The notes beneath the pieces were generated by a model. It was not told where the DNA came from. It ran no database searches and worked only from the letters and a program-made list of their open reading frames with translations. Both the position numbers and the translations under genes were made by a program. This document shows positions 2,009 through 12,084 of a stretch of 32,432 nucleotides of DNA, in pieces (position 1 is the stretch's first letter; the number at the start of each line of letters is the position of its first letter). Source of the stretch: Nanobdellati archaeon (GTDB lineage: Archaea; Nanobdellota; Nanobdellia; Woesearchaeales; JAADFO01); contig JAADFO010000046.1 of NCBI GenBank assembly GCA_013152815.1, positions 1 to 32,432 on the forward strand, given 5' to 3'.

Positions 2009-2023
2009 AAGGTGGACTGAGTG

Positions 2024-2221
2024 ATGTTGAAGTTCAGCATACATGCGCGCGAACGAATGGCCCTGCGATGTATCAGCAAAGAGCAGATCAGAGAGGCCAT
2101 AAAACGAGGATCAAAACACCTCCAGAAACCGAATAAGATAGTATCGGAATACCGCTATTTCAGTGTGGTCTTCACCGTCCAGAAGGATTGCATATATGTA
2201 ATAACCGTACAAATAAGATGA
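2024..2221 (+). CDS. DUF4258-like (RelE/BrnT-fold) putative toxin
   Basis: FSIHARERMALRCIS.EQI.EAI..G and the C-terminal YVITV match the DUF4258 pattern. ATGA overlap with the next gene. Confidence 0.75.
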   Translation: MLKFSIHARERMALRCISKEQIREAIKRGSKHLQKPNKIVSEYRYFSVVFTVQKDCIYVITVQIR

Positions 2222-2595
2222 AACGCGAAAAAACTACCGGTTTTTTGCGTGATCAGAAATCTATCAGATTTCTGACATGCCCAACCTGCAACAAAGGCCA
2301 ATTGAAGAAAGGCAAGAGGAAAGAGATCATGTTCGGAGTAGACCTGGGAACCTATCCTGCAGAAATATGCGACCATTGTCACGAATCGTACACTGACGAG
2401 GAAACGACCGAGAAGATACTTCAAGCAGCGAAAGATAAAGGCATCTGGGGCCTTGGCAAACATACAAGGATCACAAGAAGCGGTAACTCTCTTGCGGTTC
2501 GCATACCAAAAAAACTCGCTGATTATTTAGGTCTGAAAGAAGGAATGGACACTTACATCCATCCAGAAGGAGATAAGATAATTCTAGAACACTAG
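2218..2595 (+). CDS. YgiT/MqsA-type zinc finger fused to an AbrB/MazE DNA-binding domain (putative antitoxin)
   Basis: CPTC...CDHC.E.Y zinc ribbon followed by ITRSGNSLAVRIPKKLADYLGLKEG (AbrB signature). Confidence 0.85.
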   Translation: MKREKTTGFLRDQKSIRFLTCPTCNKGQLKKGKRKEIMFGVDLGTYPAEICDHCHESYTDEETTEKILQAAKDKGIWGLGKHTRITRSGNSLAVRIPKKLADYLGLKEGMDTYIHPEGDKIILEH

Positions 2596-3772: not shown

Positions 3773-4864
3773 CTAATTGATGATCTCGATTCCCAGCTCG
3801 TCCTCGAACTCGGTGAGTTCGACGGTCTGCGGAGCCTTCTTGGCCCGCTCTGCCTTGCCAAGTATCCAGGGGCTGTGGACACCGGTGATAATGGTCATCA
3901 CTGTGACTTTTCCCTTCATGTTGTCGTCGATTCTAGCGCCCCAGATAACATTGGCATCGTCATCCAGGCTCTCGGTGACGATATCTCCGATCTGCGATAT
4001 CTCGTCCAGTGTCATGTCAGGTCCGCCGGTGACGTGGATCAACGCGCCGGTGGCTCCCTGGTAGCTGATGTCCAGCAGAGGATTGGTCAAGGCTCCTTTG
4101 ACTGCCTCCTGGACCCTGTTGTCAGTGTCTGATGCGCCGACGCCGATGACAGCGACGCCGCCGTTGGTCATGATGGCCTTGACATCGGCATAGTCGAGAT
4201 TCACCAAACTCGGGATGGCGATGGTCTCGACGATGCCTTTGATCATGGTCGCGATGAGCTCGTTGGCGACAGCGAAGGCCTGCTGGATGGGCAGGTTCCC
4301 GGCGATCTCCACCAGGCGGTTGTTGTCGATGACGATGACCGTGTCAGAGACCTTGCGGAGCTGCTGCAGCCCGAACTCGGCCTTGTCCACTCTGGCCCGC
4401 TCGATCTTGAAGGGCATCGTGACCGTGCCGATGACGATGGACTTCATCTCCTTCGCGACGCCGGCGACGACAGGAGCCGCTCCAGTTCCCGTACCGCCGC
4501 CCATGCCGGCACAGACAAAGGTCATGTCCGCTCCTTTCAACGCTTCCTTGATCTCACCCAGGGATTCGGTCGCCGATTCAGCTCCCCGTTCAGGGTAGCC
4601 TCCGCAGCCGAGACCCTTGGTGACGTCCTTTCCGATGAGGAATTTCTTGTCGGCCTCTGTTATCTTGAGATGCTGAAGGTCGGTGTTGCAGGCCAGGATC
4701 TCAGCGCCCTTGATGCCTTTCTTATAGAGCCAGTTGACCATGTTGTTGCCGGCTCCGCCGACGCCGAACACCTTGATGTTCGCTTTGCCCACGGTCACGC
4801 CCTCGAAGGTGGTTTCTTCAGCCAGGTTCTGTTCTTTCAGTGCGTTCTCCACGATAAAGTCCAT
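3773..4864 (-). CDS. ftsZ: Cell division protein FtsZ (archaeal FtsZ2-like)
   Basis: GVGGAGNN, GMGGGTGTG and NLDYAD motifs. PFKIERAR and IDNNRL resemble the FtsZ2 clade. SD GGAGGGG precedes the ATG at 4864. Confidence 0.95.
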   Translation of the reverse strand: MDFIVENALKEQNLAEETTFEGVTVGKANIKVFGVGGAGNNMVNWLYKKGIKGAEILACNTDLQHLKITEADKKFLIGKDVTKGLGCGGYPERGAESATESLGEIKEALKGADMTFVCAGMGGGTGTGAAPVVAGVAKEMKSIVIGTVTMPFKIERARVDKAEFGLQQLRKVSDTVIVIDNNRLVEIAGNLPIQQAFAVANELIATMIKGIVETIAIPSLVNLDYADVKAIMTNGGVAVIGVGASDTDNRVQEAVKGALTNPLLDISYQGATGALIHVTGGPDMTLDEISQIGDIVTESLDDDANVIWGARIDDNMKGKVTVMTIITGVHSPWILGKAERAKKAPQTVELTEFEDELGIEIIN

Positions 4865-4982
4865 TTTTTCTTCCCCTCCTTTTTTGCTTGAGTCCATGCA
4901 GTCGCTGCAGGGTCTATCGCCTGACAACCCTGTTCAATAGGTGTCTAGTATAGGGACGCATAGCAAATAGACTTTCCAGTAA

Positions 4983-4997
4983 CGAAAAGTTTAAATA
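4983..4997 (+). promoter_or_regulatory. BRE-TATA pointing into the hairpin array (no downstream ORF)
   Basis: CGAAAAG-TTTAAATA. Confidence 0.55.
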
Positions 4998-5030
4998 CTA
5001 TAACGGTCTCTAACCTCTTAGAACAAAACC

Positions 5031-5145
5031 TGTTACTTGCGCCAACAAGTGACAATCTGGATTTTTGGTTCGCCAAAACCAACAATCCTCGTCGGTAATA
5101 ACCATTCAAGCGCACATTGAGTTCCGCCAAAAACTCAATTCTTGA
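5031..5145. ncRNA. Candidate structured RNA or leader: three hairpins sharing the loop CGCCAA
   Basis: Stems 5031-5054, 5059-5088 and 5116-5139 have different sequences and the same loop core. Confidence 0.55.
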
Positions 5146-5169
5146 TTTTCTTATTTATCTTATAACTAC

Positions 5170-5185
5170 TATTTAAAGTTATCTG
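5170..5185 (-). promoter_or_regulatory. BRE-TATA pointing toward the hairpin array and ftsZ
   Basis: Minus strand CAGATAAC-TTTAAATA. The predicted start (~5146) falls at the edge of the third hairpin. Confidence 0.5.
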
Positions 5186-5224
5186 TGATTCATAATATAT
5201 TTTCTGAAGACTAAGAATTCACGT

Positions 5225-5926
5225 TCAGCGCTTCCTTTGTTTAAGGGATTGCTTCACCTTGTCATGCACGTCCAGGGTCCTGTCCTGGATCTGTTGGAAG
5301 AGGGTCTTCGATCCCCTGCGGAAGAGCTGCTTTCCCTTCTCCAGGTTCTTCTGCACCGTCGTGCTCCATACCCTCGTCGAGGTGTCCAGGTTCGCTATCC
5401 GCGCGCCCCAGCGTTCAAGGAAGACCATGTCGGTGAGCTTGTAACGTTCCGGGACAGGCACCTTCTCGTCCGGATACCCCAGGGTCAGGATGAGCTCCAC
5501 GTTAACATAGTCCGGCGCACCGACGGCTGCACGCATCATGTCCTGGTCGAACGCCCCGACCATGCAGGTCGCGAGACCGATGGCGTGGGCTGTAAGAGCC
5601 ATGTTCTCGGCGATGGTGGCGCAGTTCATGATCGAATAGGCCTTCTCTCCCCGCTCTCCATAGAACTGCCTGGCCCGCTGCGGCTCTGCGACGATGGCAA
5701 GGATGACCGGAGCCGTCTCGATCCAGTACTGCTGAAGGGCGGCCTCTGCGATCTTCTGTATCCCGGCACGTTCACGCACCAGGATGACCTTGTAGTTCTG
5801 GAGATTTCCTGCAGTGGGAGCGAGCCTGCCGGCATCGAGGACACGGCCTATCTGGTCCATGCTCAACGGTGTGGAAAGATATTTCCGGATAGAACGGCGG
5901 CAACGCATACATTCTTCAACATCCAT
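5225..5926 (-). CDS. Nitroreductase family protein with a C-terminal extension
   Basis: RRSIRKY, APTAGNLQ, ENMALTAHAIGLATC and LTLGYP motifs. Confidence 0.9.
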   Translation of the reverse strand: MDVEECMRCRRSIRKYLSTPLSMDQIGRVLDAGRLAPTAGNLQNYKVILVRERAGIQKIAEAALQQYWIETAPVILAIVAEPQRARQFYGERGEKAYSIMNCATIAENMALTAHAIGLATCMVGAFDQDMMRAAVGAPDYVNVELILTLGYPDEKVPVPERYKLTDMVFLERWGARIANLDTSTRVWSTTVQKNLEKGKQLFRRGSKTLFQQIQDRTLDVHDKVKQSLKQRKR

Positions 5927-5988
5927 GGGAGCAGGCATCGTGAATAAACATTTAAATAAGGACAGCATATTTAAACTTTGTGATGGCC

Positions 5989-7920: not shown

Positions 7921-8457
7921 ATGGAGCCGACAGAGGTCATCGAGCAGCTCATCGATTCGAAACTGCTTCGGATCCTGCGGCTCTTCATCCAGGAGAAGGA
8001 CACGGACTTCTACCTCAAGGAGATCTCCGACAGGACCAAGGTTCCTGTCGCATCGGTCTTCCGCATCGTCAACCGGCTGGTCCTCCTGGGCCTCGTCACC
8101 CGGAAGAAGATCAGGCGTTTCAAGCTCTACACCTGCTCAGAGGACAAGTCGGTGAGGTTCCTCGAGAGCTTTCTCATGGAGAGCAGGCACATCCTCCGGG
8201 AGTTCCTTGTAGAGGCAAAGGAGATCCCCGGGGTGAACATGATCATCCTCCACGGCAAGGAGGAGAAGGACCGTGCCAACATCCTGCTCATAGGGGAGCA
8301 TATCGATTCTGCGAAGGTCAAGGAGCTTGTCGCCCAGACCCATGAGAAGCATCATTATACCTTGTCGGTGTTGGAGCTCACCGAGCAGCAGTTCGGCCAG
8401 ATGGCACAGATGGGCCTCTACGCAGGAGAGAAGAGGGTGATGTGGAGGAAGGGATGA
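7921..8457 (+). CDS. Winged-helix regulator with a degenerate nucleotidyltransferase-like C-terminal domain
   Basis: FYLKEISDRTKVPVASVFRIVNRLV HTH. IILHGKEEKDRANILLIG resembles the MNT fold without the GS and DxD residues. Confidence 0.75.
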   Translation: MEPTEVIEQLIDSKLLRILRLFIQEKDTDFYLKEISDRTKVPVASVFRIVNRLVLLGLVTRKKIRRFKLYTCSEDKSVRFLESFLMESRHILREFLVEAKEIPGVNMIILHGKEEKDRANILLIGEHIDSAKVKELVAQTHEKHHYTLSVLELTEQQFGQMAQMGLYAGEKRVMWRKG

Positions 8458-8546: not shown

Positions 8547-8963
8547 CTATGCTTTCCTGCTCTTGAGTTTAGGTAAGAGCATACTCACAAAGAGAATGAT
8601 CTCCTCTGCTTCTATCTTCAAGACTGTTTTCCCACGATAATTGATATCATTCCGTATCTGTCTATACCTATCGCTTCTCTCAAATTCGGACAGAGAAAGG
8701 ATTCCTTGCTCCTTTCCGAAAGCAAGGATGGCTTCATGAGAGTAGGGTTTGTATCCGGCTGCAGCCAAGAATGATTGCAGCACCTCTCTTAGGACCTCAT
8801 ATGCAGATTCAAACCGAAAAGGCGCAGTCTCCTCTGACAGCGGAAGGTTTTTCAGGTCTTTGAGCCTCGCTTCTGACTGCTTGAGAAGGGAGTCTGCTTC
8901 TGCAGGATCAGGAGAGATCTTCCTGACTTTCTTCTCTTCAAGATAGGCGGTAAATGACTTCAT
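8547..8963 (-). CDS. HEPN domain protein (putative toxin)
   Basis: Helical protein with AYE, SHE and RNDINY (R-x4-Y). It is coupled to the upstream MNT gene by an ATGA overlap. Confidence 0.75.
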   Translation of the reverse strand: MKSFTAYLEEKKVRKISPDPAEADSLLKQSEARLKDLKNLPLSEETAPFRFESAYEVLREVLQSFLAAAGYKPYSHEAILAFGKEQGILSLSEFERSDRYRQIRNDINYRGKTVLKIEAEEIILFVSMLLPKLKSRKA

Positions 8964-9493
8964 GGAATGTCAAGATAACCATCCAAAACAGTTCCATTTG
9001 CAAGGGTGGACAAAAATTCTTTTTCAATACAGTCCCTATCAAGTATTTGCACTGATATTTTTCGAAGCAGTTTCTTTTCATATATCTTTAGATCCAATCT
9101 TGGACCTCTTTTCGAAAGAACAGCAATATCGATGTCACTGCTTTCAATATCCTCTCCTTTTTCGTAGGAGCCGAAAAAGATGATGCATTCTGGCCGTCCG
9201 AATATATCAATAAGATAGGCGACCAACCCGGACTCATAGACGCTGATCAGATTATGGGCTCTTTTCAAGACTTTGAATGCGATCCCGTCTGTATTTGCCT
9301 TAGTAAGCACAAGATTCCTTTCTTTCTTTCTTGTTATGAGCTCTTGTTCAACAAGTTCTTGCACAAGCTTTCTTGTCCATGGGAAGGAAATCCCTGATGC
9401 TCTGGACAGTTCCCGTAAATGGAATACTCTCGTAGGGAAGGTAAGGTAGAACCAGAGTAGGTGATCCCGTTTACTAGTAAGTTTTGCTTTCAT
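8960..9493 (-). CDS. wHTH-MNT minimal nucleotidyltransferase (putative antitoxin)
   Basis: N-terminal HTH (HLRELSRASGIS) and FFGSYEKGEDIESSDIDI (GS-x10-DxD). Confidence 0.88.
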   Translation of the reverse strand: MKAKLTSKRDHLLWFYLTFPTRVFHLRELSRASGISFPWTRKLVQELVEQELITRKKERNLVLTKANTDGIAFKVLKRAHNLISVYESGLVAYLIDIFGRPECIIFFGSYEKGEDIESSDIDIAVLSKRGPRLDLKIYEKKLLRKISVQILDRDCIEKEFLSTLANGTVLDGYLDIP

Positions 9494-9541: not shown

Positions 9542-9644
9542 CGCCCCTGCCGAGATTTGAACTCGGGTTACAAGATGTTTGCAAGCCAGACAGAGGTTGT
9601 GGCTTCCGCAATCTCGCGTCCTATCCAGACTAGACTACAGGGGC
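9542..9644 (-). tRNA. tRNA-Arg(GCG) with a 29-nt 37/38 intron (9577-9605)
   Basis: GCCCCTG TAGTCTAGTCTGGATAGGACG CGAGA TT-GCG-G [intron] A TCTTG TAAC CCGAG TTCAAAT CTCGG CAGGGGC G. TTGC/GCAA BHB helix. Confidence 0.93.

Positions 9645-10740: not shown

Positions 10741-12084
<1,344 letters not shown>

Follow-up and report, generated by a model that had tools for sequence, protein, structure and literature searches.

A conserved hairpin array between facing promoters upstream of ftsZ suggests an undescribed RNA switch on cell division in many DPANN archaea

Introduction

The described systems closest to the locus reported here are bacterial pairs of a target RNA and a countertranscript. The title of a 1998 article by Asano reportedly names 5'-rUUGGCG-3' as a loop motif, and that of a 1992 article by Blomberg is said to place the tap leader peptide in the CopA/CopT control of plasmid R1. 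RNAI of the I-complex first binds via its top loop, according to passages of PMC10724649, in which primers show CGCCAA. CopT bears a YUNR U-turn and makes its first pairing through CCG/GGC (excerpts of PMC10798244), and YUNR loops speed loop-loop binding on either partner (sections of PMC4485353 and PMC10798244). In pT181 and pIP501 a countertranscript kisses a leader that precedes the coding region, thereby ending transcription early (passages of PMC3753616), and in Shigella a kissing countertranscript, RnaG, on the icsA leader likewise ends transcription early (parts of PMC5394118). A comparison of another kind is offered by cdrS, which lies directly upstream of ftsZ2 in other archaea (excerpts of PMC8406309 and PMC7439475) and which, in the relevant passages of PMC7439475, is reported in all archaeal clades except DPANN, where it was not detected.

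Here we analyse an array of hairpins upstream of an ftsZ gene in a window of 32,432 nt, the whole stretch of archaeal DNA under study, and compare it with its relatives and with the systems above.

Results

Three hairpins with one loop lie between facing promoters

A sequence-only reading of the window had placed three CGCCAA hairpins at 5031-5054, 5059-5088 and 5116-5139 (the last extended by 5106-5110/5141-5145), and all of them match, with CGCCAA at 5040, 5071 and 5125. Likewise present are the inward-facing BRE-TATA elements (TTTAAATA at 4990-4997 on the plus strand and 5177-5170 on the minus strand) and the T-rich tract that follows the third hairpin on the plus strand, while the palindromes upstream of both promoters were absent from that reading. 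The features of the locus are as follows:

3773..4864, minus strand: ftsZ (putatively of the FtsZ2 clade), presumed target; Pfam Tubulin and FtsZ_C, TIGR00065 ftsZ at 397.9 bits
4865..5147, minus strand: predicted ftsZ 5' leader of ~280 nt with three UUGGCG (YUNR) loops; start placed 30 nt from the TATA box
4873..4879, minus strand: ftsZ ribosome-binding site GGAGGGG, from the sequence, outside the predicted antisense RNA; relatives are also G-rich before the start codon
4961..4978, plus strand: palindromic box T-NN-AA-N-ATATAT-N-TT-NN-A upstream of the antisense promoter, from a position logo of 67 antisense promoters
4982..4997, plus strand: antisense promoter, BRE and TATA (TATA 4990-4997), a conserved reverse promoter
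5020..5160, plus strand: predicted antisense RNA of ~130-140 nt (AGAA at 5020-5023, fold z -3.68) with three CGCCAA loops and a U-rich 3' end; both ends predicted
5031..5054, both strands: hairpin nearest ftsZ, loop CGCCAA on plus and U-UGGC-G on minus at 5040-5045, from the sequence
5059..5088, both strands: middle hairpin, loop 5071-5076, from sequence and folding
5106..5145, both strands: first leader hairpin, core 5116-5139, loop 5125-5130; its stem covaries across relatives
5140..5162, plus strand: U-rich tract, the A-rich start region of the sense promoter (A-run counts) and probable end of the antisense RNA
5170..5185, minus strand: sense (ftsZ-directed) promoter, TATA 5177-5170 and BRE, from sequence and conservation
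5189..5206, minus strand: palindromic box upstream of the sense promoter, logo consensus as at the antisense promoter
5225..5947, minus strand: nitroreductase-family gene (Pfam), the upstream neighbour, outside the element

The predicted antisense RNA and the leader overlap exactly over the hairpin array, and the folding z of 5020-5150 was -3.68 on the plus strand and -1.67 on the minus strand. The window shows no enrichment of CGCCAA (10 sites versus 14.0 expected), yet three of the sites are packed into 91 nt. The 1.49-Mb genome has 615 sites, both strands counted, and only 7 of them are enclosed by a Watson-Crick stem of at least 5 pairs; three of these 7 are the array hairpins. The element is single-copy in the source genome, where no other standout hairpin with the array loop was found, and many relatives have a last leader hairpin with the stem type of the one at 5031-5054. 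A DNA sequencing run gave contigs of relatives only, one of which spans 5046-5203 with 29 differences. No conserved ORF was found in the space directly upstream of ftsZ2. An Rfam scan returned only a tRNA over the window and three chance matches (E 3.7-8.7) over the array region, and none of 18 archaeal loci matched a family, while both plasmid controls did.

The source genome has three ftsZ genes. A copy of another clade is 51% identical to the window gene and is followed by SecE, Spt5 and L11, which we take to be the context of ftsZ1; the window gene is therefore assigned to ftsZ2 by inference. It is chromosomal and set among housekeeping genes, and no hairpin element was found at the other two ftsZ genes. 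The second ftsZ2-type paralogue (68%, G000:C14:23400-24900) is without hairpins; its promoter contains two copies of a 13-letter repeat that resembles the core of the palindrome, spaced by 22 nt. The gene directly upstream of ftsZ2 varies: of 99 loci, 19 have a nitroreductase gene there, 29 have dph5 and 25 have a wHTH gene, the last being found somewhere in 39 of the loci. In the window, the wHTH protein (7921-8457, plus strand) has a probable nucleotidyltransferase-like C-terminal fold typical of the phylum, and is a candidate palindrome-binding factor.

Several other features were observed. Two toxin-antitoxin-like pairs lie in the window, namely a DUF4258 and a MazE-domain protein at 2021-2595 (plus) and an MntA-like nucleotidyltransferase with a 138-aa partner matching no family at 8547-9493 (minus). 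The tRNA matched by Rfam at 9542-9644 (minus, 103 nt, probably intron-containing) was missed by ARAGORN, and ~930-1060 looks tRNA-like by eye in the ORF list and was not called. Elsewhere in the source genome, at G000:C1 ~10980-11250, tandem small ribbon-helix-helix-like ORFs (46-47 aa) stand behind a strong promoter, one matching Pfam RHH_1, so that small RHH genes do exist in this genome outside the ftsZ2 locus.

The array shares its loop pair and layout with plasmid copy-control RNAs

Among the closest systems, ColIb-P9 Inc (RNAI)/repZ (Rfam RF01087) has the same loop pair, UUGGCG on the target and CGCCAA on the countertranscript, the archaeal RNAs being predicted from DNA. In the ColIb-P9 plasmid record UUGGCG occurs at 325, inside the Rfam PK-repZ match, and the loop flanks resemble those of the first hairpin of the window. 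The plasmid has one hairpin, together with a pseudoknot and a leader peptide, in a bacterial setting, whereas the archaeal element has several hairpins on a chromosome and neither device. With R1 CopA/CopT it shares the YUNR U-turn on the target and an antisense RNA that leaves the ribosome site of the main gene uncovered; CopA/CopT acts on repA via the tap leader peptide, in contrast to the archaeal element, which has no leader peptide and ftsZ as its target. The likeness to ColE1 RNA I/II lies in the facing promoters, an overlap of ~100-130 nt and three same-loop hairpins (the ColE1 RNA I match, Rfam RF00106, holds three TACCAA loops), and some archaeal lineages use UUGGUA/CUGGUA loops; RNA II, however, is a replication primer and the U-turn there is on the short RNA, whereas the long archaeal RNA is a message, which in most cases carries the U-turn itself.

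The facing countertranscript promoter, full complementarity to the 5' part of the target, a YUNR loop on one partner and a G/C kissing core of the plasmid pairs are all found here at the DNA level, and the target is not a replication initiator or primer. Because no Rfam model matched in the 18 loci and the target is a chromosomal division gene, the element is not a member of the plasmid families; by analogy, it most likely works as their copy-control pairs do. The earlier statement that no described family fits stood, but the identity of the loop with the motif of ColIb-P9, a known one, had escaped that reading.

Two further comparisons concern other parts of the arrangement. CsrB/RsmZ RNAs also repeat one short motif, GGA, in loops and linkers; they are free-standing RNA genes with no facing promoter, whereas the archaeal motif is YUGG-NN and has no Rfam match. 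The cdrS-ftsZ2 arrangement shares the position upstream of ftsZ2 and the same presumed job, but CdrS is a ribbon-helix-helix protein and the space of the archaeal element holds no conserved ORF.

The element is widespread in the class and its stems covary

We fetched 110 ftsZ loci and, after removing 7 with less than 400 nt upstream and 3 duplicates, retained 100, the window included. The records of close relatives are mostly titled Woesearchaeota or Nanoarchaeota. Among L039-L118 many are titled Methanosarcinales, one Euryarchaeota and one Alphaproteobacteria; their FtsZ groups with Woesearchaeota and the element is present, so these titles look like wrong labels.

YUGGCG occurs upstream of ftsZ2 at least once in 74 of the 100 loci, at least twice in 64 and at least three times in 40, with 195 sites on the ftsZ strand versus 1 on the other, and the repeats range in copy number from 1 to 6. 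The motif is missing from 26 of the 100 loci. A covariance model found 57 of 151 genomes of the window's class at E ≤0.01, many of them weakly, and of the 29 best loci besides the window 26 lie at ftsZ (tblastn), two end at a contig edge and one is false. By eye, ten families from other orders than that of the window also showed YUGG-type arrays. The element is thus widespread within the class, and it is not universal, because some genomes are without any visible array.

Covariation was assessed in 61 loci (59 distinct), chosen for the motif plus a reverse promoter, with rows anchored on the loop and kin not independent; in this set the stem of the first hairpin was paired in 82.5% of cells, versus 52% in shuffles and 40-57% in slid controls, and all nine pairs had two-sided changes. 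Inside the stems, wobbles of both strands were counted (21 G-U, 25 A-C and 12 other), and their placement was uneven, with 15 G-U versus 0 A-C next to the loop and 5 G-U versus 27 A-C at pairs 3-6; transition bias could contribute to this G-U/A-C balance. The median folding z over 64 elements was -1.2 for the sense and -2.4 for the antisense strand. The element is real and conserved, and selection acts on structure, loop and both promoters; the stems covary and the loop is kept.

Observations were also made outside these arrays. Apparently the same facing-promoter layout stands before ftsZ with other repeats (GAGGCG, or UCGGCUAA three times) in L453 and L455 (family f63) and L457 (f82), and a divergent metagenome ftsZ group (L244, L246, L249, L251, L256, L260 and L263) has another conserved upstream region, rich in TTGGA/CTGGA. 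In viral sequences the first-hairpin pattern had no match and the last-hairpin pattern matched at least 120 stretches. A terminator-like hairpin of staphylococcal phages with a UUGGCG loop (L307:590-635, similar in L307-L426) has a 16-letter core in common with the archaeal last hairpin; among the matches listed, the commonest viral contexts are near-identical to it, and no Rfam match was found in 8 such loci. The likeness of the phage and archaeal hairpins is probably convergence or chance, and the phage hairpin may itself be a sign that these phages use antisense control.

Conserved promoters frame the array on both sides

A reverse BRE-TATA followed 19-24 nt on by AGAA was found in 67 of the 100 loci and in 59 of the 73 hairpin-bearing ones, compared with 2 on the opposite strand and 1.1 +/- 1.0 in shuffles. 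The pattern was derived from the same first 100 loci, hence held-out sets were searched: in another order it was present in 15 of 22 loci (opposite strand 3, shuffles 0.4), and in metagenome loci, a mixed set including divergent ftsZ copies, in 16 of 64 (opposite strand 0, shuffles 0.9). Archaeal transcription is expected to start 29-33 nt from the first TATA base, and AGAA stands at this distance in 97 loci selected on that pattern, versus 15 of 328 and 16 of 365 other promoter-like sites. Ahead of the antisense start, only 46 of 116 loci carry a T4 tract. The reverse promoter occurs with either orientation of the upstream neighbour (in 35 of 49 loci with a co-directional and 31 of 50 with a divergent one); it is therefore not the promoter of that gene, and this reading was rejected for divergent neighbours.

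On the other side, a sense promoter lies upstream of the first hairpin in 64 of the 73 hairpin-bearing loci, 29-79 nt before the first loop, and an A-run of at least 4 was found in 43 of 64 sense promoters versus 118 of 328 other sites. Since no consistent third promoter was seen in the 41-145 nt between the reverse TATA and the ftsZ start, ftsZ2 is probably transcribed from the upstream promoter through the array, as judged from promoter motifs.

The palindromic box ranks first (sense) and fourth (antisense) among 365 core-promoter-like sites in the genome and is a probable transcription-factor site. It also scores high at G000:C39:3870, C60:19865, C72:23121 and C58:11670 (topoisomerase VI-like, TFE-like and two small ORFs). 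A palindrome regulon suggested by the score at the topoisomerase VI-like gene found no support, as 26 genomes gave 6 promoter calls of which 2 had the box, one being the source genome.

Devices of the plasmid systems were looked for in the leader. An ATG-led frame of at least 8 codons was found in 3 of 74 loci only; in 74 of 97 loci TTC is directly followed by a stop codon, and these stops follow from the antisense start motif, so that a leader peptide was rejected. As for a pseudoknot partner, 3 of 64 canonical loci have CGCCA close to the start, and complements in 12 chosen loci were nowhere consistent. Sequestration of the ribosome site was rejected as well, since pairing of the real 5' part with the site did not exceed that of shuffles (33 of 80); cognate leader duplexes were not better than permuted ones (29 of 300), and blocking the array raised ribosome-site accessibility in 43 of 80 loci in a test that is biased. 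No intrinsic terminator was found, this being a bacterial-type signal from which archaeal termination differs.

Loops change in concert and can be inverted

Among hexamers with at most one change from TTGGCG in the 100 loci, TTGGCG occurred 190, TTGGCT 21 and TTGGCA 16 times, and the common ones keep YUNR. In a wider set of 212 loci the hairpin loops comprised 208 YUGG, 16 YUGA, 12 CCAR and 325 other, and 427 of 667 YTGG sites lay outside stems, ~210 sites being expected from composition; one clade has long unstructured UUGGU runs. The variants also include UUGACG, UUGGGC and UUGGGG. Whole arrays have changed to UGGUA, UGGAC, UGGCU, UGGGC or UGACG in separate lineages, and in 18 changed loci, related ones included, 46 of 107 site pairs were identical versus 12.1 when permuted (maximum 26). 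Such concerted change needs either cross-kissing of non-cognate loops or one common partner.

In family f65 the same promoters enclose a pair of orthologous hairpins, with loops mostly UUGGGG/UUGGGA. In three of its genomes the polarity is inverted: on the ftsZ strand, both loops read CGCCAA in L220 with the stems kept, both read CGCCCAA in L202 with the first stem kept, and in L205 the first loop reads CGCCAA and the second is without the motif, again with the stems kept. These three genomes of one family occupy three places in the FtsZ tree, split by supported branches, so polarity has switched about three times, in either direction, and function is independent of which strand bears UUGG. 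With mixed loop polarity one RNA could kiss itself, a possible reason why loops switch together.

Discussion

The reading that we favour, and hold to be probable though far from settled, is that the ftsZ2 leader and a countertranscript of ~130 nt pair loop to loop and thereby throttle ftsZ2. The sense promoter would give an ftsZ2 mRNA with a long leader, whose 5' part would form between two and six hairpins, each topped by a U-turn (YUNR) loop, in this case UUGGCG; the facing promoter inside the leader would give a short RNA spanning exactly the hairpin array, with complementary loops. The two RNAs would meet loop to loop, as in CopA/CopT, Inc/repZ and ColE1 RNA I/II, and pairing would then spread; as output, the leader would be terminated early, cleaved or degraded, with polymerase collision contributing, and less FtsZ2 would be made. 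As a wide gap separates the antisense RNA from the ribosome site, control most likely falls on the transcript, and premature termination or decay is favoured by elimination and by analogy with pT181 and icsA/RnaG, although those systems use a bacterial intrinsic terminator and none was found here; early termination of their kind would be the likeliest archaeal output. We infer that both RNAs are made, that they kiss and repress, and the step at which they act. Counting against this reading are the absence of the devices through which the plasmid systems usually act, the loci with no YUGGCG or no visible array, and the origin of the inversions in just three genomes of one family. The sign could also be the opposite, in that the antisense 5' tail, by covering the U-rich stretch of the T4 tract, could allow read-through, and a common activator box on both promoters could make a delay or pulse circuit. 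Among the three options of the sequence-only reading, that of an ftsZ leader paired with an antisense RNA has the strongest support, from the conserved promoters, the plasmid kissing pair and the invertible polarity. A further elaboration, which we think rather unlikely, is an inhibitor-dilution size sensor in which an unstable antisense RNA, its level tracking gene dose per cell volume, would hold ftsZ2 down until growth dilutes it.

The main rival retains another of these options, the CsrB-like sponge, in a form that we regard as tentative and do not prefer: the repeats would be sites for one CsrB/RsmZ-like RNA-binding protein that binds UUGG in loops and linkers of the leader or of a titrating RNA, and the antisense RNA would only mask them. 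Consistent with it are the 427 of 667 YTGG sites found outside stems, the large unstructured runs of one clade, and a copy number varying from 1 to 6. Its best argument is the concerted change of loops across lineages, which cognate kissing alone does not require; L021 keeps the usual first and last stems while its loops change, as though they tracked a single partner. Where CGCCAA has been inverted onto the mRNA strand, in L202, L205 and L220, the leader has however lost the sites, a change that a sense-antisense pair would tolerate and a leader-bound protein would not. Moreover, the genome has no other standout hairpin with this loop and so no visible regulon to titrate for, and no candidate protein was found, the nearby wHTH gene being linked no more than dph5 or nitroreductase. 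The invariant loop, its uniform polarity per locus and its concerted inversion are also what plain transcriptional interference leaves unexplained, an account in which the facing promoters exclude each other or the polymerases collide, with the hairpins serving each RNA for pausing, processing or stability rather than as kissing loops; it is improbable to us, even though both promoters are conserved with a common upstream palindrome, two of three f63 genomes keep facing promoters with other loops by eye, and icsA/RnaG exemplifies facing transcripts with attenuation (passages of PMC5394118).

Three more readings would move the function away from a leader-countertranscript pair, and we give them very little weight. 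If the hairpins acted in DNA, as cruciforms or as protein-bound single-stranded loops with both strands shown at once, inversion and the equal G-T/A-C counts would be tolerated; the wobbles, however, are strand-biased by position (15:0 next to the loop, 5:27 at pairs 3-6), the 195:1 strand bias has no reason in a cruciform, and the stems are short and A/T-rich in DNA that, between converging polymerases, is overwound and so disfavours extrusion, which makes this reading most improbable. Hardly to be credited is a ColE1-type replication origin, with the sense RNA as primer and the short RNA as inhibitor: three same-loop hairpins between facing promoters are indeed the ColE1 layout, but the sense RNA leads straight into the ftsZ ribosome site, and cdc6 is 185-343 kb away in four of four single-contig genomes (of the three inspected among them G019 is without canonical loops, and G190 is the fourth). 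GC skew over about half of two single-contig genomes gave no clear switch at the element and is uninformative. The last option of the sequence-only reading, a loop mimicking a tRNA 3' end, proved weak in view of variants such as UUGACG, UUGGGC, UGGAC and UUGGGG, and with it the T-box-like converse, in which UGG loops would read the CCA end of uncharged tRNA and link division to amino-acid supply; either we consider extremely doubtful. UGG is the most constant part of the loop, and UGGN pairs with NCCA in T-box antiterminators; against this, lineages differ in the fourth base, for which all four values are seen, loops with UGAC exist, and inverted leaders are without UGG; Rfam gave no T-box match, and UGG here stands in terminal loops, from which it can be lost.

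Antisense control through kissing loops is thus a known mechanism, and we rate the element as its appearance in a new domain and role and as a new RNA family, also for Rfam. No paper describing such an element was found in the literature searched; motif catalogues of supplements or subscription journals could hold one. If the favoured reading is true, a conserved kissing-loop antisense system would operate on an archaeal chromosome with the exact loop of an enterobacterial plasmid, arrived at or borrowed, and the natural loop inversions and concerted changes would offer ready-made tests of U-turn loop conservation. Were the dilution sensor true, plasmid-style counting would occur on a chromosome at the place of CdrS, the several identical loops serving as many pairing starts. 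DPANN archaea keep FtsZ2 while CdrS is undetected in them, and the element is a concrete, class-wide candidate for division control; judged by its sequence features, it suggests an undescribed RNA switch on cell division in many DPANN archaea.
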